Assembly (NCBI GenBank): GCA_010405405.1
Contig: MU004237.1
Span: forward strand, 2,119,345 to 2,183,344
DNA: 64,000 nt
From: Microthyrium microscopicum
Taxonomy: Eukaryota
Direction: 5' to 3'
A program made the translations under genes and the position numbers. The notes under the pieces are model-generated. The model searched no databases. It had not been told where the DNA came from and was given only the letters and a program-made list of their open reading frames with translations. Shown one piece after another: positions 18,301 to 59,599 of this stretch; position 1 is the first letter of the stretch; the number at the start of each line of letters is the position of its first letter.

Positions 18301-19859
18301 CTAAACCTCCTCACCGCCCTCCCCAGCACCGTTCTCCACCGCCTCCTTCTCCTTTTTATCATCCATCTCCTTCTTATGCCCCTCCTCATACCCCTCCGTC
18401 TTAATATCCCTCAACCCCAACTCCTCCTCCTCCTGTTCCGTCCTTGTATAATCCTCCACCGTAATCGCCGCATCAATCTCCCCATCCACCTCCGCCAAAC
18501 TCTGCACATAACTCCCCGCCAACGGATCCTCCAGCACCAACGTAAACTCCATCTCTCCCGCAATCGCCTTGTCCAGCTTGCTAAAGAAGCCTTCCCACCG
18601 TCCTTTCTCGTCGTGCTGTAAACTGTCGCCGCCGCCATCGGCGTCGAAGACGTTGGCTTTTAGGTCGTCGCGTACTTGCACTAGGAGACCTTCGATTGTG
18701 GTGAAGCGGCCGCCTAATGTACCTGGTTCTACGCTGAGTGCTAGCTCTGAGCAGGAAAGGGCACAGGACTCGGATTTGAGGATGTCGCGGGATAGGTCGG
18801 CGGAGTTTTTGATATGGATGGTTATGCGACGTCCTAGGTCGGGTACTGCGCCGCCGGTTTTCACTTCGTTGGATCGGTAGCCGCAGTGGGCGCAGACGGT
18901 GGACATTATGACTACTTGTTTGAAGTGGGGGATGTTTACCATCTTCATGTGTGTGTCGCAGGATTGCATGCAGCCGGGACAGGTTGCTGGGAAAGTGTAG
19001 ACTTGGTTCTCGACGATATCGTCGTCTGGATCGTGGTCGGCGTCGACGTTGTTGGTTGCTGTTGTGCCGTCGGTTGGTTGAGCGGGATACATGTGTGAGG
19101 GGTGGTATTCTGGACGCATTTCTACGCCGTCGTTGGAGGGTTCTTGGGCGGAGAGTCCGAGGGCAGTGTTTTGTTCGGGCGTGCGGTTGTAGTCTGCTCG
19201 TATGAGTTTGCCACGGGTGTCGGTGGGAGATGGCTCGATCCATGAGTTTCCGGCGGGGTCGTTGGCGGTTATGGTGAAAGGGAAGGACGTGGGTGTGCTG
19301 GATGCCATGGACTGGAGGGATGTTATGATGCTTGCGATCTTCTCGTATACTTCTGGGACGGCTTCTTTGCGCTCATCTTGCTTTTGCGACAGATCTTGCG
19401 CGATGGTTGAAAGAACTCCCTCGATGTTCGTGAGTTGGCCACGGCCCGCGGGCACTTCGAGGTCAATGTCCTCGATCCGAAGGGTACAAGTGTCGCTCTT
19501 GATGAGTTGCCGGCTTAGGTCTTCAGTGTTCTCTACTTTGAAGGTATACTTGTGACCTCTTTGTTGGATTTCGCCGGCAGATTGAATCTCGGAGTTTTTG
19601 AAGTGGCAGTGTTCGCAGGCAAAGGACATGATTATTATTTCGCGGAAGAAGGGAATCTTCGTCAGAAGGAGGCGTGTCATGCCCTGTTTGAGTTAGTTGC
19701 TGGTTCTTCATCAGGCTGTGGGCAACGTACATCTTCATGACAATTCATGCACAAACTCTCGATTTCATCGACGACTCGAGGCTCATCGTCCGTAGCATCC
19801 CCTCCGGTCGTGGCAGCTTGAGCTCCAACAGACTCGAAAAGTTGTGGTCCGGTAGACAT
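18301..19859 (-). CDS. ZPR1: Zinc finger protein ZPR1 (intron 19684-19730)
   Basis: ESLCMNC..TRLLLTKIPFFREIIIMSFACEHC; second finger CPGC..IPHFKQVVIMSTVCAHCGYRSNEVKTGG; GRFTTIEGLL. Confidence 0.96.
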
Positions 19860-20761: not shown

Positions 20762-21799
20762 CTATTCCTCTGGTATCCAAGTGGGATTCTGGTCTTCCGA
20801 ACCCTGCCACAACATCTCACGTCTTGACCCACGGCTATTTGGTGGGTACCAAGCCCAAATTTCGCAAGGAATGTGATCTCGTTGCTCATCTATCGTCATC
20901 TCAACACAGGTGTGATAGTAATATCCTGGCCCCGATGTTGATGTTCTGGGTTTGGTTTGAAATCGCCATGCTGTAGGAACGCCGACCAAAATTCCGTGCT
21001 TTTGAAAGTATTTTTGAATTTTTCTCATCCACCATCGATGGAAGCTGAAACTCGGAGGGACAGTACCATTTCGAGGATGGTCAGGATCATCGAAGGCGAA
21101 GTTTTCTTGCCGCCCAGACACTATAGCACCGGAAGTGGTGGTTTCCAGAGCATGAGGCTGCCAGTTTCGATAGGCGCTGCCACCGTAGGAAGTGTAGGAC
21201 AACCCCGACTTCACTTGGAATTCACATGTGAATGTTTTGATCTGTTGCGCTTGGCTAAGAATCTGAATGTTGTCTTGAAGCTTCTCGCCGATTGGAAAGG
21301 CTTTAGCAACGACCGTATTTAACCAATTGCTTTTAGCTCGAACATTACAAAGCTTTGGAAATAGACTAAGCACAGTTGTAGCCCCACACCACAAGTACGA
21401 TGCTTCAACAGAAAGATGAAGACTCCGGATGCGACTCATCTGAGAAAGCGAAATGTTGAATGCTTTCTGGGACGAATTGGACGAAAGAAACAAGTGTTTC
21501 GGGTTGATAGATTCCAGCCGAAACAGATTCTCGCAATAGAGAAGTTCTGTTGCTTCCTCCGCGATTTTCTTGCATGTGCTCAGAATTTGAGGATATAGAC
21601 CGAAAGATTCGCTGGCTCTGTAAATACGAGTTATGAAGCCTGGACTGTTGTCGGGCTCCTCGTCGATGGTGATTGTCGGTATCCTCCAGATTTCATCCGG
21701 GGTAGGAAACACCAGAAGCTCTTTGTAGATCATTAGTCGAACCTCTGGTGGTAGCCTACGCAGTGAGCCGCAGTCTGAAGAAAGATTCTCTGCGGACAT
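20762..21799 (-). CDS. F-box-like array paralog P1 (subtype A)
   Basis: LRRLPPEVRLMIYKELL; PQILSTCKKIAEEATELLYCENLFRL; C-terminal FSFHRWWM..VPTAWRF..DHIPCEI. Intronless, 345 aa. Confidence 0.82.
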   Translation of the reverse strand: MSAENLSSDCGSLRRLPPEVRLMIYKELLVFPTPDEIWRIPTITIDEEPDNSPGFITRIYRASESFGLYPQILSTCKKIAEEATELLYCENLFRLESINPKHLFLSSNSSQKAFNISLSQMSRIRSLHLSVEASYLWCGATTVLSLFPKLCNVRAKSNWLNTVVAKAFPIGEKLQDNIQILSQAQQIKTFTCEFQVKSGLSYTSYGGSAYRNWQPHALETTTSGAIVSGRQENFAFDDPDHPRNGTVPPSFSFHRWWMRKIQKYFQKHGILVGVPTAWRFQTKPRTSTSGPGYYYHTCVEMTIDEQRDHIPCEIWAWYPPNSRGSRREMLWQGSEDQNPTWIPEE

Positions 21800-22651
21800 G
21801 ATAATGGTGGTGTTGAGGGTATGATGTGAGGTTTTAGTTTCGTGATATTTGAAGTGTGGAGGACTAGAAATAATTTAGGAGGTGCGTTTGGGATGAACGA
21901 TGGCAGACTACTTAGGCAGCTGCCTACGGGTGTCTATGTGCCTAGAAAGGCTTCGCATGACGTGATTGTGACTGCCACTTATATTCATTTTGGCTGGGTC
22001 GTGCTTGCCGTGGCGGCTCACATACTGAACGCTCGATAAGGCTGAGCAATTTCACCATAAGGCTGACAGCACCAATCAAAATAGTCGAAATGTAATTATC
22101 AACTCCTGTGAGGGACAAGATAGCTAAATATCTAAAAATACATATATGCAATTCATGATTTCTCCGATATAAGAATATACAATACTGCTATCAACAGGTG
22201 GGCCGCCAGAGCCATAGTGCACAACCGCATGGCAAAATAATGATCTTGTCCCATGAAATCTGATGGCCGCCACCAACGCTCTTAAGCAAAGGTGCTATAC
22301 TTCCCATTGTAACCGATAAACTAGTCGGTTCTGAATAACCTCTATGGCAAATAGAGCACTCGATAAAAGGGCGTATCATCTGGGAGCCAACAAGGTTGAT
22401 GGGAACGCGCCACTTATTTTGCTGACCCGTTGTCTGCACATGAAACAATCTTTGCGCTCGGGTGCAAGGCAAGATTGCGTCGCCCGTTTTCGGTAGTTCT
22501 TCACCTTTGCTCACACACACCTTATCTTAGTTCTGCTCGCTTTCATTCTTTATTCATTTTAATTTCATTGTCATCTGATTCTTCTGATCCATATAGATAA
22601 AAGGTAGCGCTTCACCAAGCCTTTTGTCGTCCTATTATTCAAGATCGTCCA

Positions 22652-23653
22652 CTACAACTCTTCCGTCCCAGTAATTGTCTCGTGTCTATCAACGATCTCG
22701 CACTTGATGTGGTCCTGATGTACGCCTGTCGCCATTTCGACCCATGGAAATGGCTGCCTACCACTGGCGTCGGTGAGGAATCGCCAGGCAGTAGGAACAT
22801 CCTGCAGGATATCTCGTCTTCGAAGTTCCGCCTGGATTTGTTTCCTCCACCATCGATGAAATATGAAGTTGGCTAGTTCCAAGGTACGAACAGGATTCTT
22901 GCCATCAATGTCTGCTTCAACTTGTTGTTTTGGCAGAGTATTTGGCAGCCACAGTCCACGAACAGATTCACAGTCGCTCCCTTCGTCTTGGGATGATCCA
23001 TGGAAATACTTCAATTCAAAGAAGCATTTGATCTTTTTGATACGTGGAATCTGGCTGAGCTCTTCAAGGACATCGAGAGTGTGCACTTCGTGTTGCTCAT
23101 TTGGTCTACCTTGGTAGGAAACATAGGTTTGTGGCCACGAGGTCTTTCCATGAACGGTACGAAGAGCTGGAAATTGGCCGAGCAAAGTTGCAAGAGGCTC
23201 GTTGTAGTAAGCTGCCTCCATGGGGACGTGAAGAGTCGTAATGAAGTTGGTTAAGCGACGTGGCACCATGCATTCCACTTTCTCAGGATACACTTTGCTG
23301 CGCGTATAAAGGCGAAAGACGTTATGGCGATAAAGGATTTCATGCGCTTCTTCGTGTATCTGTTTGCAGGCGCGAAGAATCTGCGGAAAAAGCCTTCGAG
23401 GTGGAATGTTATAGGGAAAGCCGTCGAAACAAGGCGGATGCGTCCACTGAGAACCTCCGTGGATATCGGTCACATAATCTCCGCTCATATCACGACAGGG
23501 CCCAAGAACGATGTCCTGTTCTGTCCGTGTTGGCTTGTTTGACGTGAGGGGCTCGGGAGGCGCAGTTAGAAGATATCCATAGACGATCAATCTGATCTCA
23601 GGAGGAAGCATGTAGAGAAAGCCGGAACATTGTGGAGATTCGGTAGAAACCAT
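22652..23653 (-). CDS. F-box-like array paralog P2 (subtype A)
   Basis: FLYMLPPEIRLIVYGYLL; PQILRACKQIHEEAHEILYRHNVFRL; FIFHRWWR..VPTAWRF..DHIKCEI. 333 aa. Confidence 0.82.
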   Translation of the reverse strand: MVSTESPQCSGFLYMLPPEIRLIVYGYLLTAPPEPLTSNKPTRTEQDIVLGPCRDMSGDYVTDIHGGSQWTHPPCFDGFPYNIPPRRLFPQILRACKQIHEEAHEILYRHNVFRLYTRSKVYPEKVECMVPRRLTNFITTLHVPMEAAYYNEPLATLLGQFPALRTVHGKTSWPQTYVSYQGRPNEQHEVHTLDVLEELSQIPRIKKIKCFFELKYFHGSSQDEGSDCESVRGLWLPNTLPKQQVEADIDGKNPVRTLELANFIFHRWWRKQIQAELRRRDILQDVPTAWRFLTDASGRQPFPWVEMATGVHQDHIKCEIVDRHETITGTEEL

Positions 23654-24230
23654 GATGAGCTCCTTGGTCGAAAAGCGATGTTGCGGTTCTTTGCTGTTTA
23701 TGCGATGTAAAGTTTATGGAAATTGGAGAATGATAAAGGCACAAGCTGATCTGCGTGTTGAAAATATATGAGTAGTACTGAGATATATAGCAGGTGGCGG
23801 AGAGAGTGATTTCAAGAGCTGTCACTTCAGCTGTCACTTCAGAACTTTCATCTCTCCGTAGCGGGTTGCCTCGATCACCTCATTTGTACTTTCCAGGTCA
23901 CTCGTGGGTTTTGAGGTTGATATGGAGCCGCCAGGTGGCCATTCAGAGGTAGAATGCCTTCTGCATCCTCTTCGGCAGCGTAGCAAACTTGGGCTGAAAG
24001 AACATTACAATTGAAAACATAAGCATTTCAATTGCTCATAATCTAGCTGATTTCCAATGTGAAATACAGGTATTGACGGTCTGGATGACTCGCCAGCAGA
24101 TTTCAAATACTCGGAGATCCTAGCATAACAAATCAACCCTTAAAAGCCATTAGATAGGTACTCAGCACTGATGCCGACTCCGACGGAAATGGATGGAAAG
24201 GCGTCCATCGGCACTCCTGCCTAAGTACTA

Positions 24231-26062
24231 ACGTGCCCCACCCACTTCTGCGCCAACCTACTTCTGCGCCATTAGATCAAGATAATTAACAAATAATCAC
24301 TGTAGGATATCTTAGCTAAAACACAAAATATTTAATTAATTTAAAGTACAAAATTAAGCTTAATCTTTAAGCTACTAATTCCTTCTCTCTACTTCTTCTT
24401 AAGTCGCTTAAGTATGTCTTAAGCTAAAGCTAAACTATTTATTACAAAATCTCTAAAAATCTTCTCTTTATTATCTAATTCTGTATTATAATCTTTCTTC
24501 TTTCTTTTACATAATTTTAAAACTATAAATAATATTCTAACCTATTCTTAAAGCGTAATAATTATTTATTATTAAGCTAAATACTATACTAAGGCTTTTA
24601 AAGCCTATTTTAGAATTACCTATTTAACTATTCTCTTTAAATAAGGAGTTAATAATAAAACATTAATTAATTTTAAAATTTCTACTAAAGTAGAAGGAGT
24701 AATAGCTCTAGTAATTTATATAGGAATTTCCTCTAAAGCATTTTTAGTTATTAAAAAGTAAGATAATAAATAATATAGTTTAAATAAATAAATACTAATT
24801 ATAGCAAAGGAATTTTAGATATTTAACTTAGTAAAAGCTTATTTATAAGCCTAAAAATAGATCTAAATAAAGATTCTCTTCTAAATAGAAGTAGATATTA
24901 AATTAAGTCTAGAATAGTATAAAATAGTAGTAAATTTATACTTTAAAGAAGAGAAGCAACTAACGTCTAAAGGTTAAGTTTTATAAGATAAATAAGGTAG
25001 TAAATATACTAATTATATATTATTAATAATATAAATATAGCAAAATTTAGGTATATAATAACTACTATAGTTATTATAAACTAAAATTTACTATTCTAGC
25101 TCATTTATAAGCGAATTAAGTAGTATTTTAGTAAAAGGAATAAAGATCTTTTAAAGCTATTCTTTACTAAGCTTATTTAACGTCTAGCTATTAACTATAG
25201 CTATAAATTAATAGCTAGCAGATTCTAATTCCTTCTTATAATTTGTAGGGAACTAGTAGTTAAGAATAGCTAGTCCTTTATAGATCGTAAAGAAAGGTAT
25301 ATAGGTTCCTATTATAGAAACCGTCTTAAGAATTAAAGTATTTTCTTAACTATTATTTGTATTTAGAAACTTATTCTTTTTATATTTAGTAGTTTGCCTA
25401 CTAACTATAATAATCTCTTTGCTATTTAATAATAGGCATATGCCTATTTTGTCTATATTATAGATATTTAATAGCTTAATGAAATAAGTTATAATCGTAT
25501 AGTTTAAATAGTTATAAAACTTCTTAATAGCTAGTTTATTAAATCTATTAAATTAAGAGCTTTCTATCTTCTTACGCTTTATTAAAATAATATTAGGATT
25601 TCGTCATTTAAATCCTTAGATTTAGTTTATACCTAAAAAGGATAAAGAATCTATTTCTAGGTTCTTAAGGCGCAAAAATTCTTTAGTAAATTCTCTTATT
25701 CTACTATAGTTAGGAGAGTTACTAGCAATCTCTTTATATAGAATCTATTTAATTACTTAATCCTTATCTATCTTAGATAATTTTTAGGCACTAGAATAAG
25801 CTATAGAGTATAATTTAATTCCTTTTAATCTACGGCCTAGAGTATTATAAGAGATTCTATATGCCTTAGTATAACTTCATAATAATAAGTATTCCTAGTT
25901 TAAAAATGTATTTACTATATTATCTAGATCCTATAAGTCTGCTATTAAAAGCGCATTTTAAAAGAATTAAAATTGAGAGAGTTATGGTGGTTTGAAATTG
26001 ATCTAAATTGTTTGATGGGGCTGGCGCAGAAGTGGGTTGGCGCAGAAGTGGGTGGGGCACGT
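24231..26062 (-). mobile_element. Full-length Fot1/pogo-type (Tc1/mariner superfamily) DNA transposon, RIP-inactivated
   Basis: ~41-bp terminal inverted repeats ACGTGCCCCACCCACTTCTGCGCCAACC(T/C)ACTTCTGCGCCA. TA flanks both ends (24229-24230, 26063-26064). 1832 bp long with a very AT/TpA-rich interior. Minus-strand transposase relics IYNIDKIG (cf. NMDETG), ILVYNNYSSY (cf. DxHxSH) and LLPYLSYKT*PLDV (cf. LPPHSSH..QPLDV). Confidence 0.95.
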
Positions 26063-26356
26063 TATAGGGTGCGACGGGGGGCAGAGGAAAAGAGGATGGG
26101 AGAACCCTTCCAAGAAAGAGCGACCATATGCTGTCGAAAGGACGTAGAACGCATGTCATAGCTACCTAGCCATTATGTCTAATTCATGTCTTTAAACTGT
26201 GTAGAAGTCTGAAAGTATCTCTAGATCTTTGTAGCATCATGTTACCCCAAGGGCTCTCTTATTATCAGTTCCTCTAAGCCCCATCGCACCCTATGGTAGT
26301 TTGGCATAAAGCGAAGTACAGCTGCGATCAGCTACTGTCCCATGTCTTCGCTCCTA

Positions 26357-27277
26357 CTATTGTTCCAAAGGCTCTCGACCTGACATTACCCCGTAGTCTC
26401 CCGTGACCTGGCAGAGGATGTCATGCTCCAGCTTGTTCACGATCATGACGATGAACACATCCGGCCAACTGTCAAAAGCGGTGATGGCATGGAACCTCCA
26501 TGCTAAGGGAACATCGACCAGGTAATTGCGTGTGCGCATTACGCCAATCATCATCGTCATCAGCTTGCGATGGACGCTGAAATCTCTGGACCATTTGAGT
26601 AATTCATCGTGTGCCATATCGCCGTCCGTGCTAAGGAATTGGGCCACGAGCTCGATCTGATGAATGGGAAATGTACACTGAAAACTCTTCAAACGAGGAA
26701 AATGAGCGAGTTTTTGAATGCAGTCCAAGATGTTTTGTCTCTCCTGCTGCAGGTGACTGATACTGCGGAACCGCTCAGTAGCATAATTCGGATGGCTAGC
26801 ATGATAAAGATGATTCCCGTCTTCCAGCCACAAGAACTGACAATCGAGACGCCGAAGTTTTGGAATGTGAAGAACAAGATGATCAGCAACGTATTGTGCC
26901 AAGCTTTCGATCTCTTCCCAGTCGTGAAATCTTATACTGAGGTGACGAATGAGGCTCATTTGTTCCGGTGAGAAATCATACGTAGCAGATTGTGGATCAT
27001 ACCAGTTGGGATCTTCCAAGCTAAAAGTATTGCAGTGATGCAATATATCTTTCGCCTCTTCATAAACTTGCTGGCATGTCTGTAGGATCTGGTAGGAAAG
27101 GTTCAGCCTGGAACCGGGACTTCGATGTATTTTGAAAGTTGGTGTATTCTGACCGTTGTTGCGGTTGTTGGGTACAGCATGGAAGACAATCATTTCTTGA
27201 GAAGCCAAAGCAAACGCGTAGATCATCTGCCGAATTTCTAATGGGAGCTTAGATAGAAAGTTTGAAGAGCTCGACAT
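26357..27277 (-). CDS. F-box-like array paralog P3 (subtype B)
   Basis: MSSSSNFLSKLPLEIRQMIYAFAL; QILQTCQQVYEEAKDILHHCNTFSL; FSVHRKLM..LVDVPLAWRFH..HDILCQVTGDYGVM. Confidence 0.82.
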   Translation of the reverse strand: MSSSSNFLSKLPLEIRQMIYAFALASQEMIVFHAVPNNRNNGQNTPTFKIHRSPGSRLNLSYQILQTCQQVYEEAKDILHHCNTFSLEDPNWYDPQSATYDFSPEQMSLIRHLSIRFHDWEEIESLAQYVADHLVLHIPKLRRLDCQFLWLEDGNHLYHASHPNYATERFRSISHLQQERQNILDCIQKLAHFPRLKSFQCTFPIHQIELVAQFLSTDGDMAHDELLKWSRDFSVHRKLMTMMIGVMRTRNYLVDVPLAWRFHAITAFDSWPDVFIVMIVNKLEHDILCQVTGDYGVMSGREPLEQ

Positions 27278-28014
27278 GATGGGAGAATCAGTAAACCGAG
27301 ATTTCAGTAGACACGACTTTAGTGGATGAACTAAGATCTGTCTGGTGAAGTAGGAAAGTGGGCAACAAGGCAACTAATATACCCATTTTCTTTCCTCTTT
27401 GGAATATATCTTTAAGTGTGACTAGGTCAGTGATCTCCTGATGTGTCTGCGTGTTCAACGGATTGCAACTTCATGGTTTGTGTTAACGCTTAGAGGCTCG
27501 GAAAGCACAATTACAGTAGCTGGAGAAAGATCATCTTCTCGATCTCGCTCTCCAGCGTCATATTTGAGATAAAGCGAGCCCTCTGACCTTATAATCATCA
27601 GTGGTAAAGGAACAATTGTCGATATATCCCATCTAATACGGGAAGAGACTTTTCCTTACAAGCACTTCTCTGTACAAACTCTATCTAATTGTCTGACGTG
27701 TTAAGAAAAACATCAGACACAAACGTATCTCAAGGGAAACCTTGTCTTTAGAGCACACAGCTGATACAGGGCTCATATTAAAGCTACCTATCTAAGGTAA
27801 GTACCTAAGTCAGGTATCTTCCAGAAATAGAGCGGAACGGTAGGCCATTAACGACTTGACGGGACTTACCACCACACGCATGAAAGCCCATTTACAACAC
27901 CAAAAAATCGAGACGAGAAGAAGTGCCGTGATGTTAACCTCCATCCACTTGCTGATAACATATCTCGCTGTTAAACCCAAACTGAGAGCGGCACTATCAG
28001 ACAGAAGTCTGAAA

Positions 28015-28090
28015 ACCCACCATCAGGCTGAACACCCACCATCAGGCTGAACATCCACTATCAGGCTGAACATCCACTATCAGGCTGAGT
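28015..28090. repeat. Minisatellite, 4 x 19 bp (A(C/T)CCAC(C/T)ATCAGGCTGAAC)
   Basis: Four head-to-tail units with no spacers; a degenerate unit near 27991. Confidence 0.9.
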
Positions 28091-28403
28091 AGTCAATCAA
28101 AGGACTGGAGGCGCTCGTCTCCTCCTGAGATCACGAGTAATGCCAACTTGGATTGAAACAAAGTACAAATTTTGTTATTGTCCTAGCTATTGGGCTTGCC
28201 TAGACTACACGCGATACTCATGAGCTTGTTCGCGTACAGAGCGGCATACAACAGAGACCATCAGAGGCCAACTCATTAGGCAACTTTCAGTCCCCAGTCT
28301 GATCAGACTTTTCTGTCCTCGATAAGCCAAGCACCTGCCTTGCCGAGCTCCCATGATGTTCAACAAACAATCAAAACTCGAAATCTTGCCTACACTGCCA
28401 GTC

Positions 28404-29537
28404 TTACTCCTCATCTGAGTCCTGCTCCTCGCCCGAACTCCACTCCCCTCCTGAGGTCAAATCCTCTTCTGAGGTCGATGCCTCTTCTGCATTCGAGTCC
28501 TCCTCTTCCTCTGATAATCCTGCGGTCTCTACCTCCTCGAGTCCTTGCCACAGGACTTGTTTGTCGTTCATGATTTCGCATGTGATATGATCGCGACGCA
28601 TATTTGCGGTCATCTTGATCCAAGCGATAGCATCCTCAGATCCCTCACTCTTAAGGGTACTAAAATTCCAGGCAATCGGAACCCCAGGTAAGGTTTCTTG
28701 TCGTTGAAAATCCGCTTTAATCAACCCCATCCAATAGCGATGAAGACTGAAGCTTGGAGGTACTGGATCTTTGGCAGTATCCGTATCATCTTCCACATAC
28801 GTCGAGTCTTGAAGCGCTTTTGTCACTATATTTGGACGCCCGAGAGCACACCGCAGCCAATGTCTATGTGCCTTGTTGAAGTTACGACCACAGCCAGTGG
28901 ACCAACCTTTGTGCAACCAAGGTATACTGAAAGTGCAACTCAAACGAAGTCGTGGCGTCTGGTTGACCTTCTCGCCGAGTTTCTTCAGAGTATATAAAGT
29001 GTTGCGTTTAACATCGCAGCGTTTCGGCCATGTGCTTATAGCTTCAACGGTATGAACAGACTTCAGTTGATCGAGTACAATTTCAATCGACAAGAAACGG
29101 AATGTTGTTGGAATCAAATCAATTCTGACAATGCTGATGAGGTTCATCTGATGGTATGGCATGGCTCGTAAGCCTCGCGACAGGAAGTGCCCCGAATAGT
29201 GCTTGTGTATCGCAGGTGACAGGAAAAAAGCGTTTTGCTGATACAAGACTTCTTCTGCTTCATCGAAGACCTGCTTGCATGTACGCAGACTTTGAGAGGA
29301 TAGAACTTTGCGTTCGCAAGGCGGCTCTCGCTGTTCAATACAAGCTACATAGCCGCCAGTGTTGTCGCGCGCGGGCGCGAGATGAACCAATGCGCCCTCG
29401 TATAGTCACTATAGTGTATCGCAATCGTTCAGAGGAGCCAGAGGACACACTAGAAGCTCCACGTATATCATGCGTCTAATCTCCAAAGGAAATTGCTCCA
29501 GGAAAGCGCAATACGAAGAAGAATTCCGAGCGGACAT
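28404..29537 (-). pseudogene. F-box-like array paralog P4 (subtype A) with in-frame TAG TGA at 29406-29411
   Basis: FLEQFPLEIRRMIYVELL is in the same frame as the downstream 328-aa ORF (QSLRTCKQVFDEAEEVLYQQNAFFL; FSLHRYWM..VPIAWNF..DHITCEI). The two parts are separated only by two adjacent stop codons. Acidic repetitive tail. Confidence 0.8.
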
Positions 29538-30269
29538 AATGACCGTTTTGCTGAGCAGATAGTCGTGAGAATTTTGTTCGGGAATGTGAAGGACGAAAAG
29601 AGCAGAAGTCCATTTCAGACACTGTTGCCTTGAAGTTTTCACTGCTCAAGGTCGTGTTCCATTAGTCGCCTTATTTGATCTTCCCATTAGTTTTGAGGTT
29701 GTCTTGACACCGACAGGCCGTAAGTCTAAGAAAGCACAGCTTTCCTAATGCTTTCGAGTAACATAGCAACTTGGGCTAAATAATAGTTCAGCTGAATATC
29801 CACGTATTCACTTGCGCACAATCTAGTTGTTATAGCCGCCACGAAACAGATAAATTGAAGTACAGGCTCGCCAGGAGATAAAAAGCAAGAATACTTGCTA
29901 ATAGAGCAAGGACCACAATGAAACTCTGAAACTCTTAAATCCTAGATCTCACCGCCTACGAGGACGGCTTTGAACCGCGGAGAGTCTATTTTTACTACCA
30001 AGTGTGACCAAACATTGTGTATACTCGATTTCGTCCGCCGATCGACAAAATGGCGCGCCCATCAACAACCGTTTCTTTCATTGCACTACACGACAAACGA
30101 TGCTTTAGTTTCCAGCGCATCAGACGGAAAAGCTACGGATCTACTCCATTAAAACAATTGGTCCAATAGCGTAGCAGGATGCAGATATCGCACTTGATGG
30201 GGGCTCACCATTTATTTCGTCGACTGGTTGCCCGGCAGCCCAGTTTGAAATCCCAGTTTCATGGTCTTA

Positions 30270-31367
30270 TCACAAACATTCGCGTCGTGTCATTACCGAA
30301 TAGTCGCCGTCAACTTGGCATGTGATATGGTCGTCCTTATCGTTCAGAATCATTACAATGAACAAACACGGAGACTCGTTGAAGCGAGTAATGGTATGAA
30401 ACCGCCACGTCAAAGGGACGTCTACCAGGAGTCCTTCCTCACGCGCTTTTTTTTGAATCAAATGCATTAATTTTCGATGAGGAGTGAAGTCTTGGACCAC
30501 GCGACGAGCCGCATCATTCTCCTCATCCTGCTTTGTCGAGGTTTTGATGGTAGGAGTTCCGTTATCGATCTTTTCAGTGCTAGATTTCCCAGCGTGGGCT
30601 TCTCCTTGACTCTGCTGCTCTGCGCTGTTCACTAAGTCTGAAGTCCTGGAAGACATTGTGGCTCGAGAATACCAATAGTCCCATTCTAGATCTGTGTCGC
30701 GGCGCACCGTCTCTTCAATGCACACCGTGGGCAGCAGTAGACAAACAGGGAATTTACATCTGAGTCTCTTGATTTGAGGAAGCCGACCGATGTTTTGAGT
30801 GCATTTCAGCATTGCTTCTTCTTTTGATGGGGGCCTGGTTGAGGGACGTACTCGTCTACTTGAGGTACAGGTAGGTGTAAACCACCAGGGATACTCATGA
30901 TTCGAGGATCGGTATGGCCAAACATAGTCGCAGTCAATATATCCAGCGTTCAAAAAATTGTTAGCAAGACAGCGAAAAACCTCGTCGGACAAGCGCTCAG
31001 TGTGGTCCCATGCAGTCATTGTTATATTGAGATGAGTGATGAGACTTCTATGATCAGCTGAAATCTGGGATGAATACTTGAGAGAAGGCGAAAGATCACC
31101 CGGGACACTCAAGCGGAAGATATTACGGCGATATAAGATCTCTCGGGCTTCTTCGTAGACTTGTCTGCACGTGCAAAGGATCTGAGGGGAAGTGTCGTTT
31201 ATCAACAGCTCAGGAACGATGAATTGAGAATTGTCCCTCCGACGATTGTCGCCGCTATCGAGAGCAGGAGAGAACCCAAACGTCTCTTGAGACACTAGAA
31301 GATGCTCGTAAATCATTAGCCTCATCTCTAATGGAAGCCTATGTAGAAAGATTGAAAACGACGACAT
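30270..31367 (-). CDS. F-box-like array paralog P5 (subtype B)
   Basis: MSSFSIFLHRLPLEMRLMIYEHLL; PQILCTCRQVYEEAREILYRRNIFRL; FTPHRKLM..LVDVPLTWRFH..DHITCQVDGDYSVM. ATG 31367 chosen by homology with the other copies. Confidence 0.82.
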   Translation of the reverse strand: MSSFSIFLHRLPLEMRLMIYEHLLVSQETFGFSPALDSGDNRRRDNSQFIVPELLINDTSPQILCTCRQVYEEAREILYRRNIFRLSVPGDLSPSLKYSSQISADHRSLITHLNITMTAWDHTERLSDEVFRCLANNFLNAGYIDCDYVWPYRSSNHEYPWWFTPTCTSSRRVRPSTRPPSKEEAMLKCTQNIGRLPQIKRLRCKFPVCLLLPTVCIEETVRRDTDLEWDYWYSRATMSSRTSDLVNSAEQQSQGEAHAGKSSTEKIDNGTPTIKTSTKQDEENDAARRVVQDFTPHRKLMHLIQKKAREEGLLVDVPLTWRFHTITRFNESPCLFIVMILNDKDDHITCQVDGDYSVMTRRECL

Positions 31368-32654
31368 GATGCTTCTGTTGCTATTTAGGATGCAAGAAAC
31401 GTTGTCAACACATTTGAATGTCTGGTGAAAGGCCTGGTTGATGAGCGAGAACGTTGATATATGTGTTGCCACCTCTTGCGCAAAAGCAAAGATTTCTGCT
31501 GTTGGGCAAAGTCCTATGTACAAACACACAGGAGATACTGCACTTGACTCGTCGCTTGACCTGTGACACAACAATGAAGTAGAAATCGCAGTCACTTGTC
31601 TTGAGCAGGTAGTTGCCAGCGTATAGAGAGCTGCAAAAAGCAATCAAGGATACCAAACAACTGGTAGACAAAATAAGTGGCGTGCTCCCATCGACTTCGA
31701 TGGCTCCCAGACGACCTGGTTTGCTATCGAGTGTTTTACTTCCCTGACAGGACGTTCAGAATTGGACAGTCTATCAAGTGCAGTGGAAGATATAAAATCT
31801 GTTATTTAGTAGCATGCATGGGACCCAGCGGAACTGATGGGGGCACGCCAGTTATTTTGTCCACCGGCTTGACCAAAGAAGTATTATCAATTCGACTGTA
31901 ACTGTAACGTTAAGCCAAGTACTCAAACACAATTATAATACATTTACAATACATGATACCAACTAAGTAGTTTGTCCTTTCTCGAAAGACCTGAAAATAA
32001 ACTATGCTGGTATAAGAGCATTTCAAAGTTCATGTCGAGTTTGCTTCGCTACACTGATATTGAATCCAATCACTGCCTTCTGACCTTAAAGTGCTTGTGC
32101 ATTTGCAATAAAGCCAGCGACCTGAGACATCGGGCCGTTGTAGTTGACAGTTGGGTTTGGAGCTGCGATCGAGCTGTTTAATACTCCACCATCAGGGGCA
32201 CACCTAAGCAGATTGGTCGCTCCGGTCTCAAGGTCCTTCCAAAAGTTACACTCGTTGAGTGCCGTATCCGGATCTTGCGGTAGCATTTGAAATGTTTCAT
32301 TTGGGCTTTCGAGTGCAGATGTCGCGCCTTCGTAAAATAAGCTTGCGAAGATTTCGGCTAGCTGTCTCGAAGTCAGGTATGATGCTCGTAAACTGGCTTT
32401 CAACGACTGACACTCGAGTATTCGCGTCTACTGTGATTTCAGAGGATCTGGTAACTTTGTAAAATTAGGTATATGTAGTGCATTTTCCATGCTGTGCACT
32501 TGGTCTCTGCCAAAATGCAAAATCGTGTTCTCATCTGTTATATGATACAATATGCCGTGACCAATGAGCTTTCCAGTGTTGATGTGCTTCATACAACCGG
32601 TAGATTGTTGCTTTGACGTAGATTGGTCCGTGTCTTTTCAAAGTTCATCGCCCA

Positions 32655-33884
32655 CTAGGCGAGGAACGATAGGATGATAGGTAGGCTAAAGAGTATGGCA
32701 ACGCTTCTCGATCCTAGATGTTGCAAAGACAAGGCAGCCGCACTGGAGGGCGTTGCAGAGGGGCTTGATGACGTGTTTGAGCTCGTTGAATTACTGTTTT
32801 CACTTGTCAGTCTGAATGAGCTAGGGGCTATGGGAAACAGAAACCTGATAACCATAGATATGATGATAAAGATATCTGATCTAGTGCAAAGGTCGATGGA
32901 ACTTACGAGAGACATCCCAGGTAGCTCCCCAGCTTATCGACGACAAATTTCTGACTATCAATGCTGGCATCGGTCTTGTTCGCCGCATATGCGACACTGA
33001 TGCTGGCATAGCATCCTGCCTTGATCACCTGGCTCTCCGACGGCAATGTTGTGCTCCCACAAGTTTTGACGTCGTTTCCAGATCCAGAGTTAATTCGACT
33101 TAGTACGAAGACAAAGCTACTTGCTGAGCTACAAGTCTTGTCGGATACACTTGGATAATTGACATTGAGCCAAATGCCATCTGGGAGGTAAGGTTTTCCA
33201 GCTTTGATCAGGGTGTTCGTGACGTTCGAGCTCAAGTCAGCGTAAACTTTCTGATATGTCTCCGTGGTCGTCTGCCATCCGACTTGACTACCAGTTGCTC
33301 CACTGAATGCAATAGCCGGAACTCCTTCTTTTGCTGCTTCTGATGCTGCACCCACAGTCCCAGAGATCAAAACAGTACCACCGGCGTTACCACCAACATT
33401 GAATCCAGACACTGCAAGATCTGGTGGTCCTCCTAAGATGGTCTGGGAAAGGTTCTGAATGCCATAACGCATAGCTGTTACTGGATATGCGTTGACATAG
33501 TTCAAACGTGGCTCCGAAGCATTGTTGCCAATTGCTGGTGCTCCGCCTGGGCATGAGGAGAACTCACAGCCCGAGGACCCCAGCTGCACAGGAGTAGCAT
33601 CCGTTGATCCTGGAATTGGCGTTAGCGCAATGTTTACCATCGCAAGGAAGATGTCAGATTTGGCTGGTAGACTAGTGAATGGGTATACAGGGCGCTGGAA
33701 ACTTACCGGTTCCACTTCTGTCAATTGCTGGTGCAGAAATCAACACGTTTTGACCTGATGCAACGAGTGCATCGTAGAAGACGCGAATGTTCTTCTCGGC
33801 CCATCCATCGTCGTTCGAAAGCACAATACTGACAGCGCTGGACAAAGCAGGAGCGAAGAGAAAAAGAAGGCGTAGTTTAATCAT
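32655..33884 (-). CDS. Secreted SurE-family 5'/3'-nucleotidase/acid phosphatase with GPI-like tail (introns 33610-33706, 32794-32906)
   Basis: Signal peptide; IVLSNDDGW; ISAPAIDRSGTG; PDLAVSGFNVGGN; SGTVGAA; LNVNYP. The last exon encodes a Ser/Thr-rich stretch and a hydrophobic C-terminus. Confidence 0.9.
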
Positions 33885-36870: not shown

Positions 36871-37716
36871 TTAGTGATTATTTTCTTTCAGTTTGCCACA
36901 GCGAAACAACCATACATCAAATCGCTCAGTGGCCTGGGTGACGTCTCGTAATGGTCTGAGCCAGGTAGCCATCGCTTCTTGCTTGGCCGGGTGGTTCACC
37001 CAATTATCCCAGTTTGTGGTTAGCGACAAAAGCATAACACGTAGGCCCTGGAGTCGTTGTAGTTGTTTGCAGAACTTATTCCACGAAGTGATATCGAACG
37101 GTGGCTCAAGGTTGAGGAGAGCTGTAGGTACATTTCGAGCATACCGGATGTAGTAATGGGTAAGGATAGAACATTTCCAGGAAACGTGAAGGGAGTGGAG
37201 ATTGACAAGAGAGGTTTTGTGGAGAGGTTTAGTAAAAAGCGGAAGAGTTTGAATATGCTGGAGCAAGAATGTGTTCTCCTTGTATATCGTGGTGATGGCT
37301 TCATCATAACTACAGCTGATTAGATGTATGCCTGAATAAAATTTGGGTTTCACATACGCTCGACGACAGCTCAAAATGAATCCTAAAGGGGAGCGGGTGT
37401 TTGAAGGTTTGTGAGCGGCTGGAAGACCACTGCCAGGGTAGAGAAGTTCTTGCTTGTCCCATATACATCGACACTCATCATATGGGCACTCAATCCCTTG
37501 GTGCTTGTCATCTACGAGTCGGAGAATGTGTATACGTTTGCCAGAGAACGCATACTCGTAGATGCGTGCCCGAATCTCTGTAGGAAGAGAGAAGATCAGG
37601 GAATCAAGTTGACTATATTGAGTCCAGTCTGTATTTGATTCATAATGAACTAAAGAACGGTGAGCGTCTTCCGTTACAAAGGTGATTACATTAGAAAGTT
37701 TGAAGCATCCATCAGT
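36871..37716 (-). CDS. F-box-like (DUF7730-type) protein; 5' end unresolved, possible pseudogene
   Basis: The open frame upstream of the listed ORF reads QLDSLIFSLPTEIRARIYEYAFSGKRIHI..LGFILSCRRA[intron GTATGT..TAG]YDEAITTIYKENTF. No in-frame ATG was found before an upstream TAG. Confidence 0.55.
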   Translation of the reverse strand, partial: TDGCFKLSNVITFVTEDAHRSLVHYESNTDWTQYSQLDSLIFSLPTEIRARIYEYAFSGKRIHILRLVDDKHQGIECPYDECRCIWDKQELLYPGSGLPAAHKPSNTRSPLGFILSCRRAYVKPKFYSGIHLISCSYDEAITTIYKENTFLLQHIQTLPLFTKPLHKTSLVNLHSLHVSWKCSILTHYYIRYARNVPTALLNLEPPFDITSWNKFCKQLQRLQGLRVMLLSLTTNWDNWVNHPAKQEAMATWLRPLRDVTQATERFDVWLFRCGKLKENNH

Positions 37717-51814: not shown

Positions 51815-52599
51815 AAGCGATGAGTTCAATCATCTCTCACTTATCCAGCATCGATACCAATGAGCGTTTGCATTGATTACAAATGCTTCTGCACATATTG
51901 GGGCGTAGACGTGGAAGCTCCGGCCTCTATGGTGTCTCAAATACAATCGCTTTGAGACAAACGCCTGGATGGATCTTACGGAGAACCAATATCCAATTGC
52001 TACCGGGGTCAATTTGTGGAATGACTACAAGAAGAGCTCTGAGAAGAGCACGACTGCGATGTTTATGTGCTATGATATCCATTCACACTGCTTAGCATAC
52101 CTAAACTAAATGTATATCTACATGAGCGTTTTCAACTCTAGGTTTAATCGAGTTCTACAAGCTGAAAGGTGCGGACATATCGAGAGTTGACTTACTCTAC
52201 TCCACCCCATAGTGAGCCATTGAGAAGGCAACGGGTACAAAAGCTTCTAAGCCTCCATATGATGACGAATAATGAACCAGAACGAGTCTAGGGAGTAACA
52301 GCATTATTGATTGCGCCTCATTGCGTTTGCACAACAACAGCGAATGGTTCAATCTCTTTTTAAAGTCACGATGTGTGATGCACCTGCGCCTGCAGTGAGA
52401 GCGACTTGTGGCTTTGCAAGGCAAGCACTTTCATTTGGGGGCCATCTCAACAACTCTTGGTGGGGCAATTGTTGAGCTTCATCTTCCCACTTTTTGTCCT
52501 TTAAGCTCTCACATCGCTGTCAGCTTCTATTTCTCCCATCCCTTTTCGTTGAATTCCGTGATTGACCTTCCAGAGCTAGAATCTTGACTGGTCGGCAAC

Positions 52600-55055
52600 A
52601 TGGCGTTCTCCAAATTCACCCTCTTCCTTCTCGTCGCCCTCACCGTCTTGATCCTCCTCCCCGCGCCAGTATCCGCCTTTGGTGCTGGAAACATTGCCTC
52701 AATCTCCAAAATCGAAGGACGAAATTGGCGTCATGGAGATATCGAAGATACACTAGAAAAGATTGCATTCATTGCTGGTCGGAAGTTCTCCTCTAAGCTC
52801 ATCAAAAGAGTCTACTTTGGCAATTGGCTTCGCGACTATTCACAGGCAGTCGATGTTGGAAGTCTGAAGGGTGTCCAGAAAGATGCTATTCGGATCATTG
52901 TCTGGGTTCTTGCATTTATGAGCTTTGGCTATGCTACTGAAGAGTTTGAAGTCACCGAAGATCGACTTGGGTGCGTAGTCTACCGAATAAGTTATGGATA
53001 TCCTTCTAATCGGGGGTCAGAACGTATCAAGCTCATGAGCATATTGATAATCCAAAAGGCTATCGTGAGTTTTGCAACAACTGCTTGGATATTGATTACT
53101 AAAGTTCCCAAGCCGATGATGCCCAGAAATACGACCCACGCCTTCGGCCACCTGTGCGCCCTGAGGAAATCGCTATTGATATCAATACAGGTTTGTTCAT
53201 GGATATGATGGCGTGTGAAGCTTATTCTAAAGAATGCCAGGCATGAAAAACTACATCTCCAACGAAAGTGGCGGCTGGGCAACGAGCTCTGATTACATCA
53301 AATGGAGTATCACCCGCTCCATACATTTCGGAAGACTCTATACAAGCGGACCGAATAAAGGACGCGACTCGGACCTATATGAAGCCTTGAGATGTCTTGG
53401 ACAAGCTCTTCATACATGTGAGGACTTTTCAGCCCATTCGAACTATACTGAACTAGCACTTCGCGAGATGGGCTACCACAATGTCTTCGCACATGTTGGC
53501 ACGGGCACTGAGATCACCGTACGAGGAAAGAGAATATTTCCTCTCACTACCGGGACGTTTGGAGGGCTCGACTTTGTGATATCTGTTCTTGGAGAAGCCG
53601 GTGATCATATGGCCCAATCAGAAGTTGATGAAGTCAATACCGCTTTGTACGATGCTGTTGCTCAAAACAAAAAGTCGACCGGACCAGGGAGTCTCGAGGG
53701 CCTCACTGGTGTTTTGTCCAAAGTTCCAGGTACCGACGGTCTGATAAATGAGGCTCGTCAGCTACAACAAGAGTCGGACAGCCAAGCTCAATTCAATACG
53801 AGTCGTGCAGCACCCACCCAAGCACAATCTTTCCAAGGTCCTCCTGGATCTACTGGAGGACCACCAGGCCCCGGTATTCCAGGAATGACAATGGATCCAC
53901 AACAAGTGATCGCAAAGATCTACCCCATACTAGTTTTCAGGTCAGTGACTCTGAACTACTTGAGCCCCACAGCAATGGGCTAGTAATCGCATTTACTAAT
54001 TCCACTTCAGAGACAAAGTAGTTCGTGCCGTATCTGACATAATATCGAAGGTACCCGGTCTAGAATCACTTCTCGAAACCATCTCAGAGCGTATCACAAT
54101 GTTCGTAATGGCTTTAATCGCCCCGTTTGTCCAACCCATAATCAAGGCTGTCACCGCATCCTTGAAGACGGGAAATAATGCCGTAATTGAAAGCTCAAAT
54201 GCCACTCAGTACGAAGTCTGGAACGACGCTCGATGCTCCGACCCCACCCACTCCATGCTGAGTAAAGACCATTTCTCTAACATACTCAACGAGCCCGCCG
54301 GCAAAATCGCGTCGGAAGTCGTCTCATACGTCGCTCCACGAGTCGTCTATGGGTGGGAGCATCCCGACGTACCTGTGCACGAAATCACCGACGATGTCGT
54401 TCGCGTATTCCACCACCCGGCACTCCGTGATCAAAACATAGATGTTCACCGCCGAATGTACTCTGTTGTTGAGACTTGGGCGCGCGCCTATCAGGGAGAT
54501 CTCAATAATGTGCTCGGCTCTGAAAGCGTCAAGCAAGGCCGCAACCATGTTGGCGGACAAAACCCACATACCCATGGTGCAGCGGGCACAAGCTCTCATT
54601 CAAAAGTTTCGAATTCGCCGTTTGAGATGTTCAACAAGAAGCGTGATATGGGCTTTGCGGATGACATGGGCGACTCGGGCTATGGTTCTGGTGCGACTTC
54701 ACAGTATGGAGGCCAGCAACAGCAGCAGTATGGCGGTCAGCAGGAAGGTTATGGTTCAGGATATCCCCAACAACAGCAGCAAGGCTATGGCGGGTGAGTT
54801 ACAGCAGACGCATTGGTCTTGGAGAGTTGCAATGCTAACAGACTTCGCAGTCAACCTGCCTATGGCGCGCCACAGCAGCAAAATGATCCGTATGCTTATA
54901 GCATAGGCACGAGCTATGAGTCTGGCGACTACGATGGATATCAACAGCGTCCTGGACAACAGGGTCAAGGTCAATATGGCGGACAACAGCAACAACCTCC
55001 ACCGGGTGGATATCCTGGCCAACAAGGACCTCCGTATGGTGGAAACTATCGGTAG
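52600..55055 (+). CDS. Het-C family protein with signal peptide and Gly/Gln/Tyr-rich tail, multi-exon
   Basis: AFGAGNIASISKIEGRNWRHGDIED; RVYFGNWLRDYSQAVDVG; GQALHTCEDFSAHSNYTEL; DPTHSMLSKDHFSNILNEPAG. Confidence 0.93.
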
Positions 55056-59060: not shown

Positions 59061-59599
59061 GGTTGCGCAACTTGTACAGGATTGAGGGCGCAGATACGGA
59101 ATGGGAGTGGTTCTTGGGCGTGGAGAGTGCGGTTTATAAGACGAGGACAGAGCGAGGAGTGCAGGGAGGTGGATAGGTAGGAGTAGGCTGAGAGGGACTC
59201 AGGAAGGGTGAGACGAAAGCATCAGAGATTGAAGCTCAAGCGGTCAAGTGTAAACAGTAACAAAAGGCAGACGCGCGAGATTAGTCAAAAGTTCCTTCCC
59301 CAAGAATCAGTCAGGCAAGTACAGAGGACTGCAGATGGAAGTCGCGAATGCGTCGTCGCTCTTTCCACTGTCGTGGTGTCCAATCCGAACAGCTAGATCT
59401 GGATTACTAAGCCAACCACGCGAGGCACTAACGACGCGATCTCTTTTCCTCCAACTCATTTTTATATTCGACTATCAAAATCTCCGACAAGCCCGCTCAC
59501 AGCCGTTTGAGGCTTGCAAGTCAGCGACAGTAGTTGTATTCGCGCATACAGAGGCCTGGCTTGCAGACATACACAAGTACCGGCCCGTATTACACAACG

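Follow-up and report, generated by a model that had tools for sequence, protein, structure and literature searches.

What does a row of five diverged genes in the genome of Microthyrium microscopicum represent, a system of its own, as the first-pass annotation proposed, or the local form of a family already on record, and what could its products do? In the window, i.e., the whole 64,000-nucleotide stretch of DNA analysed, the array consists of five co-oriented minus-strand open reading frames of 306–377 codons between a ZPR1 and a SurE gene, and the ORF list and Pfam matches bear out the positions, orientation and flanks originally given. The description "intronless" is true in the sense of uninterrupted ORFs; a database model of P4, however, has a 54-nt intron. 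The features of the locus are as follows.

18301–19680, minus strand: ZPR1 flanking gene (Pfam jr-ZPR1, E 2.5e-76; Zn_ribbon_ZPR1, E 5.6e-45)
20762–21799, minus strand: P1, subtype A, intact ORF of 345 aa
about 20813–21172, minus strand: C-terminal block of P1, residues 210–329 (C-block HMM, E 4e-37)
22652–23653, minus strand: P2, subtype A, intact ORF of 333 aa
about 22655–22912, minus strand: C-terminal block of P2 (C-block HMM, E 2e-29)
24229–26064, no strand given: degenerate TIR DNA transposon of 1836 bp, between P2 and P3
26357–27277, minus strand: P3, subtype B, intact ORF of 306 aa
26366–26614, minus strand: C-terminal block of P3, residues 222–304 (AF2 models)
about 27014–27253, minus strand: predicted split F-box-like part of P3, residues 9–88 (AF2 models, fold match)
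28404–29537, minus strand: P4, subtype A, 377 codons, ATG at 29537, acidic C-terminal tail
30270–31367, minus strand: P5, subtype B, intact ORF of 365 aa
about 30273–30680, minus strand: C-terminal block of P5 (C-block HMM, E 1.8e-36 on P0004, the database gene model of P5, which is 14 residues shorter)
32903–33640, minus strand: SurE-family flanking gene (Pfam SurE, E 1.8e-23)
36874–37716: canonical DUF7730 gene in the same window

A homologue of Het-C is encoded some 21 kb from the array.

The three motifs said to be shared were all found in the five copies by alignment, which yielded 29 invariant columns. Motif (i) occurs as LPPEVRLMIY, LPPEIRLIVY, LPLEIRQMIY, FPLEIRRMIY and LPLEMRLMIY, while the columns invariant in all five copies (P3 numbering) are Q63, L65, C68, E74, A75, L79, N83, F85 and L87 in motif (ii) and F233, H236, R237, V256, P257, W260, F262, M278, I287 and C289 in motif (iii). 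The reported atc/att-ATG start context is likewise present (ATC-ATG four times, ATT-ATG once). The copies retrieve one another by tblastn with E values of 1e-11 to 1e-32, no sixth copy of the array clade was found in the window by this search, and, judged from the sequences, chance is ruled out as the source of the likeness. Pairwise amino-acid identity is 26–39% overall; it is only 14–30% in the middle compared with 27–43% in the N-terminal and 28–53% in the C-terminal part, thus the segments between the anchors, described as scarcely alignable, are indeed so. The proposed division into two subtypes is backed by a quick tree, where subtype B (P3 and P5) has an SH-aLRT support of 97 and subtype A (P1, P2 and P4) falls within a clade of support 95, its copies interleaving with sequences encoded elsewhere.

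The N-terminal motifs had been likened to the DUF7730/2EXR type, and DUF7730 (PF24864) exceeds its gathering score of 27 in all four intact copies (P1 32.3, P2 36.2, P3 48.4 and P5 45.7 bits). 2EXR (PF20150), which overlaps the same ExR-bearing N-terminal region, scores 32.0 bits in P3, 22.9 in P1, 16.7 in P2 and 22.6 in P5, and its gathering score of 24.8 is passed by P3 only. With E values up to 10, DUF7730 is matched in 40 and 2EXR in 36 of the 42 subfamily members. In the five copies and 15 relatives, positions ~3–145 alone of the 235-position DUF7730 profile are matched, positions ~145–235 being unmatched in the array proteins and the subfamily. The hhalign similarity to eight canonical DUF7730 proteins (probability 99.2%, E 1.5e-19) covers 116 N-terminal columns with LPxEIRxxIY, the insertion, LLxTCRQIYxEAxxILYxxNxF and the first IRxLxV strand, after which it ends; between the C-terminal block and the canonical C-terminal half, hhalign detected no homology. 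The canonical and the array proteins are both ascomycete-restricted and about 260–340 aa in size, and the models of the ESM Atlas itself reach TM 0.5–0.58 over residues 2–297, but the block F..HR / VPxAWRF / I.C..G..G..SR.EEL is missing from canonical DUF7730 (seven database proteins).

This block was initially regarded as an unrecognised C-terminal domain special to the array. It does lie outside all Pfam models in the 42 members scanned, but in the models it is not separable and would instead close one compact unit. Nor is it special to the array, since 42 of the best 150 database matches share it, and it is present in named proteins from Glonium, Neonectria, Clonostachys and Amphichorda; Dothideomycetes and Sordariomycetes are both among its carriers. 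Across the 42 sequences, F233, H236, W260, F262 and C289 are each at least 90% conserved, and the block lies no more than two residues from the C-terminus in 17 of 48 matched sequences, the P4 read-through included. We take it as the mark of a DUF7730 subfamily. Because this tail region recurs in dozens of relatives, the locus is to be read as an unstudied family enlarged at one site rather than as a unique new system: on sequence comparison, one subfamily of the Pezizomycotina-specific DUF7730/2EXR family has expanded here in tandem, giving four intact genes and a fifth, P4, that is either disrupted or doubtfully restored. What was once suspected to be an undescribed system thus becomes a variant, at subfamily level, of a family that is known but uncharacterised.

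As to function, the AF2 model of the N-terminal part (118 residues, pLDDT 79.3) resembles an F-box interrupted by an insertion, which favours the split F-box-like N-terminus suggested earlier. Ranked first of 48,161 chains is the Skp1-bound F-box 5ibk_E, a weak match (Z 4.7, rmsd 3.1, 48 of 48 residues aligned, 27% identity, model residues 2–82), and a split F-box would agree with it. Six F-box chains from Skp1 complexes are among the 50 matches listed (FBXO42, FBXL17, beta-TrCP1, AnkB, FBXL2 and 5ibk_E, identity 16–35%), and the three F-box helices of SCF proteins can be superposed, at low scores, on the array model (5ibk_E Z 4.7, FBXL17 Z 3.5, FBXL2 Z 3.0). However, no structural match reaches a Z of 5.3, the tool rates such values as within common arrangements, and neither the N-terminal nor the whole-protein model gave a Foldseek match at E ≤ 0.001. 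A canonical F-box has a tight turn between helix 1 and helix 2; the models place there a variable beta-hairpin of 25–50 residues, which may affect docking on Skp1. As a lead only, 93% of the members of an ESM Atlas cluster have 2EXR and 76% F-box-like_2, and four relatives carry the automatic source name "F-box domain-containing protein".

The P3 model built from a 42-sequence alignment (mean pLDDT 83.1, pTM 0.82) alternates strands with helices and has a four-stranded sheet at the end, so modelled that the whole protein would be one compact alpha/beta unit with no clear solved relative. Its weak matches include COI1 (Z 4.4) and D3 (Z 3.9; model 9–260 on chain 18–263), both F-box-LRR proteins, and also the LRR proteins TLR1 and NLRP2, the LRR-type matches having Z of 3.9–4.4; LRR Pfam families had no match in the 42 members with E up to 10. 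Like the FBXL-type proteins COI1 and D3, the array model has beta-alpha repeats after the F-box, with L..L.C.F-type strands. Unlike them, its F-box, for which Skp1 binding is predicted, is split by the hairpin, its body has about four repeats, and the antiparallel sheet at the end is without counterpart among the matches returned.

We hypothesize, with moderate confidence drawn from these models, that the array proteins are small Skp1-binding substrate receptors. Each protein would fold into one compact alpha/beta unit some 300 residues long, with the F-box in its first ~90 residues: LPxEIRxxIY as helix 1, then the variable beta-hairpin insertion, and ILxTCxQxxEEAxxILYxxNxF as helices 2 and 3. 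A short irregular LRR-like beta-alpha body would follow, and the C-terminal block would be the closure of the unit, consisting of two helices with F..HR and a four-stranded antiparallel sheet with VPxAWRF and I.C. The split F-box would dock on Skp1, and the variable middle and the C-terminal sheet could present the substrate to the SCF ubiquitin ligase, so that the copies would be receptors for different targets. No Skp1 gene is present in the window. DUF7730/2EXR, with 4356 cluster representatives at E ≤ 0.001 in a profile search, is among the large ascomycete-specific families; if Skp1 binding holds true, the number of SCF substrate adaptors in filamentous fungi would far exceed the count given by F-box models, and the C-terminal block would mark a structurally distinct branch and be a candidate for its own domain model.

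Less probable, though still to be reckoned with, is an N-terminal module that resembles an F-box without binding Skp1, its helices being a structural element of a self-contained globular alpha/beta protein whose function, for instance as a binding scaffold or regulator, would be unrelated to cullin ligases. The pTM of 0.82, with the entire chain modelled as a rigid whole, would suit such a protein, as would the low Z values and the F-box models (PF00646, PF12937 and PF13013), none of which is above cut-off in any of the 42 members (sub-threshold matches to F-box-like in two, best E 0.041, and to F-box-like_2 in one, E 0.08). The same is true of R16 and E74, which do not vary across an alignment of 85 family members; they are, to our knowledge, not canonical F-box positions and may form an internal salt bridge. 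Our literature search found no experimental work on DUF7730 or 2EXR, and 2EXR, a family with no described function, appears solely in its defining clustering paper, where a passage says only that the two ExR motifs "might be functionally important" (PMC9621593). However, that the top match and six of the 50 listed should all be F-box chains at 16–35% identity is unlikely to be an accident. An extended form of the receptor hypothesis, a new class of fungal cullin-ligase receptors with a split F-box plus a new alpha/beta recognition body closed by the F..HR / AWRF / I.C sheet, a possible metal or redox-sensing site of the almost invariant Cys68, His236 and Cys289, and, through the hypervariable middles of the tandem copies, a small receptor repertoire for different and perhaps foreign targets, appears improbable.

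A little more improbable still is that the array is a set of duplicates in decay, by now functionless or nearly so. P4 fits such decay: its codons 43–44 are both in-frame stops, TAG TGA (29406–29411, minus strand). The stops fall inside a 54-nt in-frame GT..AG stretch (29397–29450) taken as an intron in its database model P0005 (359 aa, 18 codons fewer), and P4 is either broken or, doubtfully, rescued by this intron. Translated through the stops, which are written as X, P4 matches the C-block HMM at E 8.5e-32; its 252-aa ATG-ORF, which does not include the N-terminus, has no Pfam match. The 14–30% identity of the middles and the degenerate transposon within the array would also agree with decay. 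However, four open ORFs of 306–365 codons persist despite saturated synonymous sites, dN is below dS in every comparison for which NG86 returned an estimate (omega 0.26–0.48 over the full length), and the 29 invariant columns are the same columns that are conserved in relatives of other fungal classes. Since dS is saturated and the tree places subtype A copies among sequences from outside the array, the duplicates are judged to be old. The birth-and-death evolution attributed to the family is weakly indicated, by the one broken copy and by this interleaving.

The age of the duplicates also bears on the suggested role in defence, non-self recognition or effector degradation through a diversifying system, to which we assign a marginally lower probability than to decay. 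The tandem layout, the variable middles and the single dead copy would be in keeping with it, and the nearby Het-C homologue is probably a coincidence, but old duplicates are unlike the recent turnover of typical recognition loci. No HET, NACHT/NB-ARC or similar domain is among the Pfam matches in the five copies or the 42 members, nor do the 42 members have a TIR, STAND or toxin-like domain, which speaks against this role, and none of the analyses produced support for it. It is highly improbable that the body is an enzyme fold of degenerate Rossmann type resembling the class I methyltransferases. Amino-methyltransferases do head the lists of three structure searches, weakly, but the likeness to TrmM (Foldseek E 3.7e-3, TM 0.24–0.29; Z 4.6–4.7 together with PrmC), MmeI (Z 5.2) and Atlas structures (TM 0.36–0.44 for residues 195–306) is all in the noise range of the tools, no methyltransferase Pfam match exists in the five copies or 42 members, and the conserved columns include neither a glycine-rich nucleotide loop nor an (N/D)PPY motif.

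The transposon reported within the array is present, with terminal inverted repeats of 43 nt that are 98% complementary and a TA flanking either end, and its size and TA flanks make it Tc1/mariner-like. Its interior (GC 0.22, TpA/ApT 1.45, (CpA+TpG)/(ApC+GpT) 0.38) is RIP-like in composition, and the ORF list gives no long ORF within it. The gene copies, with a nucleotide identity of 41–52%, are far too diverged for RIP, as had been supposed, and the array is an ordinary case of old tandem duplication outliving RIP. Next to the transposon, in the P2 region, one contig of 1840 nt from run X1 runs colinearly along 22338–24177 with 0 differences.

The five minus-strand paralogs P1 to P5 form a tandem cluster within an unstudied subfamily, old and of wide distribution, of DUF7730/2EXR-type (split F-box-like) ascomycete proteins, in which one copy is probably a pseudogene and one gap holds an apparently RIP-degraded transposon. 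The intergenic gaps measure, in order from P1 to P5, 852, 2703, 1126 and 732 bp, and the start codon stands in an ATC-ATG context in four copies and ATT-ATG in one. A SurE-seeded search for related loci in prokaryote genomes gave no match.

Features of the array and its flanks (window coordinates)
18301-19680, minus strand, ZPR1 gene (Pfam), one flank of the array
20762-21799, minus strand, P1, ORF of 345 aa
22652-23653, minus strand, P2, ORF of 333 aa
24229-26064, element of 1836 bp with terminal inverted repeats (43 nt, 98% complementary), in the 2.7-kb gap
26357-27277, minus strand, P3, ORF of 306 aa
28404-29537, minus strand, P4, 377 codons including TAG TGA at codons 43-44
30270-31367, minus strand, P5, ORF of 365 aa
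32903-33640, minus strand, SurE-family gene (Pfam), other flank of the array

The first-pass annotation had described five paralogs with shared motifs in two subtypes, A (P1, P2, P4) and B (P3, P5), and this description is correct and no chance pattern. Each copy, used as a tblastn query against the window, recovered its four paralogs (E 1e-11 to 1e-32), with no match elsewhere. Pairwise identity is 26-39% for amino acids and 41-52% for nucleotides; by region, amino acid identity is 27-43% in the N-terminal third, 14-30% in the middle and 28-53% in the C-terminal block, i.e., the conserved tail. The 29 columns invariant in all five copies include Y20 and L24 (P3 numbering), the run Q.L..C.....EA...L...N.F.L, and F..HR, VP..W.F, M and I.C in the tail. 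In a quick maximum-likelihood tree of the 42 subfamily members, i.e., the proteins carrying the block, P3 and P5 group together (SH-aLRT 97), and P1, P2 and P4 share a clade (support 95) with P0007-P0010, four sequences not encoded in the window. The tree bears out the two subtypes; the duplications behind subtype A date back at least to the split from these four. The full-length NG86 dS is 1.5-2.3 or undefined in all ten pairs, showing saturated synonymous sites, which makes dN/dS selection tests meaningless at such depth.

The assignment to an F-box-like family also held, with DUF7730 above the Pfam gathering score in P1, P2, P3 and P5 (profile positions ~4-140 of 235 covered) and an overlapping 2EXR match that passes its gathering score in P3 only. 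A five-copy profile, run by HMMER against the full set of 1.84 billion cluster representatives, gave 4356 matches at E <= 0.001, of which 99 reach E <= 1e-10 and 12 reach E <= 1e-30. Most of the 4356 cover the N-terminal third only; the 12 strongest align end to end and comprise the five window proteins and P0007-P0013, the nearest relatives outside the array. P0009 and P0012 carry the source name Microthyrium microscopicum, and at least these two of the seven are probably dispersed paralogs in the same genome, not orthologues. In a word-index search, P3 on its own matched nothing but itself, and the 42-sequence profile, run against PDB sequences, gave two rows at chance level (E 0.17 and 0.34). 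A sixth DUF7730 gene, of canonical type, lies 3.2 kb beyond SurE at 36874-37716 on the minus strand (88.8 bits, profile positions 90-212); its product has the N-terminal motif in common with the array proteins but lacks their C-terminal block. A literature search on DUF7730 found no paper, and for 2EXR one passage was found, in the clustering paper behind the Pfam entry (PMC9621593).

The block distinguishes the subfamily. An HMM built from the tails of 20 full-length relatives and run on the best 150 of the 4356 profile matches found it in 42 (E 7e-38 to 2.8e-5), among them the five window proteins, with the consensus P..F..HR..M, ~12 residues, (VP)..W.F.T, ~10 residues, I.C..G..G..SR.E.L. 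Its usual place is the extreme C-terminal end, no more than two residues from the terminus in 17 of 48 matched sequences; the 48 include the read-through of P4. Glonium stellatum P0021 carries it, and a later search found its core in five further proteins, from Neonectria magnoliae, three Clonostachys or unnamed relatives, and Amphichorda felina; judged from these sequences, the block spans at least Dothideomycetes and Sordariomycetes. Given this distribution, the earlier proposal that the array is a candidate for a new system goes too far. The view that the tail was unmodelled stood, as none of the 42 members has a Pfam match over it. When the subfamily alignment was compared by hhalign with eight canonical full-length DUF7730 proteins, 116 N-terminal columns aligned (probability 99.2%, E 1.5e-19) and nothing past them against this shallow template; with the 36874-37716 protein alone, itself one of the eight, 25 columns aligned. 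As far as profiles can tell, the block is not a diverged canonical DUF7730 tail, though the two tails may still be distantly homologous. Atlas models of canonical DUF7730 proteins superpose on P3 residues 2-297 with TM 0.5-0.58.

The AlphaFold2 model of P3 (42-sequence alignment) is one unit with mean pLDDT 83.1 and pTM 0.82, in which residues 154-162 alone fall below pLDDT 50. It starts with helix 13-24 (LPLEIRQMIYAF), a beta-hairpin (30-51) and helices 62-67 and 69-81, continues with four strand-helix units (strands 84-88, 112-117, 143-148 and 198-205) and ends with helices 219-231 and 234-249, which carry HR, and a four-stranded antiparallel meander (258-303) with AWRF and I.C. The shared C-terminal domain first proposed is thus modelled as the piece that completes one fold, and not as a module of its own. 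With the whole model, Foldseek found nothing in the PDB at E <= 0.001, and an exhaustive comparison with 48,161 chains by VIA-align gave no clear relative (best Z 5.2). The weak rows were class I methyltransferases, TIM-barrel glycosidases, IF3-C domains and LRR proteins, the last including the F-box-LRR receptors COI1 and D3. An Atlas search with P3 residues 195-306, DUF7730/2EXR clusters left out, gave no lead (best feature score 0.79, TM <= 0.44).

Whether the N-terminus is an F-box was addressed by sequence models and by fold. None of the 42 members passes a cut-off of the F-box sequence models. Residues 1-118 modelled alone (85-sequence alignment, pLDDT 79.3) had as best of the 48,161 chains 5ibk_E, a 48-residue F-box crystallised with Skp1, with 48 of 48 residues aligned at 27% identity to model residues 2-82, the hairpin insertion being bridged. 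Among the 50 rows listed, five more came from F-box proteins (FBXO42, FBXL17, beta-TrCP1, Legionella AnkB and FBXL2; Z 3.0-4.3, 10-35% identity), and the aligned ranges are what we take to be their F-boxes. Foldseek against the PDB found nothing for this model at E <= 0.001. The fold evidence is suggestive of a split F-box, in agreement with the first-pass annotation, Z values below 5 not being proof. This reading is the basis of the mechanistic proposal, and we infer that the array proteins would bind Skp1. No Skp1 gene was found in the window, and the Skp1 family had no match in a set of control genomes. Aspergillus nidulans is reported to have 74 F-box proteins, of which 24 were detected in SCF complexes (PMC9744329). 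Elsewhere in the window, the plus-strand ORF 7021-7815 matches the F-box-like model PF12937 below threshold (20.3 bits, cut-off 24.3; E 4.8e-4), and a ubiquitin/SUMO-type E1 activating enzyme is encoded at 57279-59198 on the minus strand (ThiF E 5e-64, with a UBA_E1_SCCH domain).

The adjacent in-frame stops of P4 lie at 29406-29411, and each is one transition from a sense codon (CAG, TGG), as read directly from the sequence. The database gene model of P4, P0005, removes both as a 54-nt in-frame intron (29397-29450, GTGTGT...GAG); with a 42-nt intron (GT..TAG) instead, the TGA would stay in frame. GAG is a rare intron acceptor in fungi. Because the 54-nt intron cuts out residues aligned with coding residues of the paralogs and has this unusual acceptor, P4 is probably a dead gene.

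The 1836-bp element has TA, the target site of Tc1/mariner elements, at both sides, no long ORF and an interior GC of 0.22. Its RIP-type dinucleotide indices are 1.45 and 0.38, against 0.63-0.70 and 1.24-1.36 in the rest of the array, and by the usual thresholds its composition is that of a RIP-degraded transposon. A second small inverted-repeat element (26064-26294; arms of 46 nt with 76% complementarity and 139 nt between them) adjoins its right end, and a 19-bp unit is tandemly repeated between P3 and P4 (27987-28100; ~5-6 copies, 63-89% identical in a 38-nt register). About 300 bp upstream of the P5 start codon lies a MITE-like element of ~200 bp (31663-31865; 47-nt imperfect inverted ends, 81% complementary), with 33-nt arm-like relatives upstream of P1 (22397-22429) and P4 (30195-30227).

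Contigs of X1, a sequencing run of guessed kind, reach very high depth (320-684) at the MITE-like element, and one links 22422 with 31838, both of which a dispersed repeat would produce. An exact 1840-nt contig matches P2 with its flanks in colinear order, and fragments lie over P1 and P3, which shows colinearity at most; none covers 27506-30841 (P4 and most of P5). Taken together, these contigs are no evidence either way on expression. One contig of low depth (2) skips 188 bases at 21193-21382 with GT..AG on the plus strand, antisense to P1, and may come from antisense transcription with splicing or be an artefact.

A role in defence or non-self recognition had been suggested; no feature of the array points to either. 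A Het-C homologue lies ~21 kb from the array at 52588-54794 on the plus strand (Pfam Het-C E 8e-63, 7e-82 and 5e-77), spread over three ORFs that are presumably exons.
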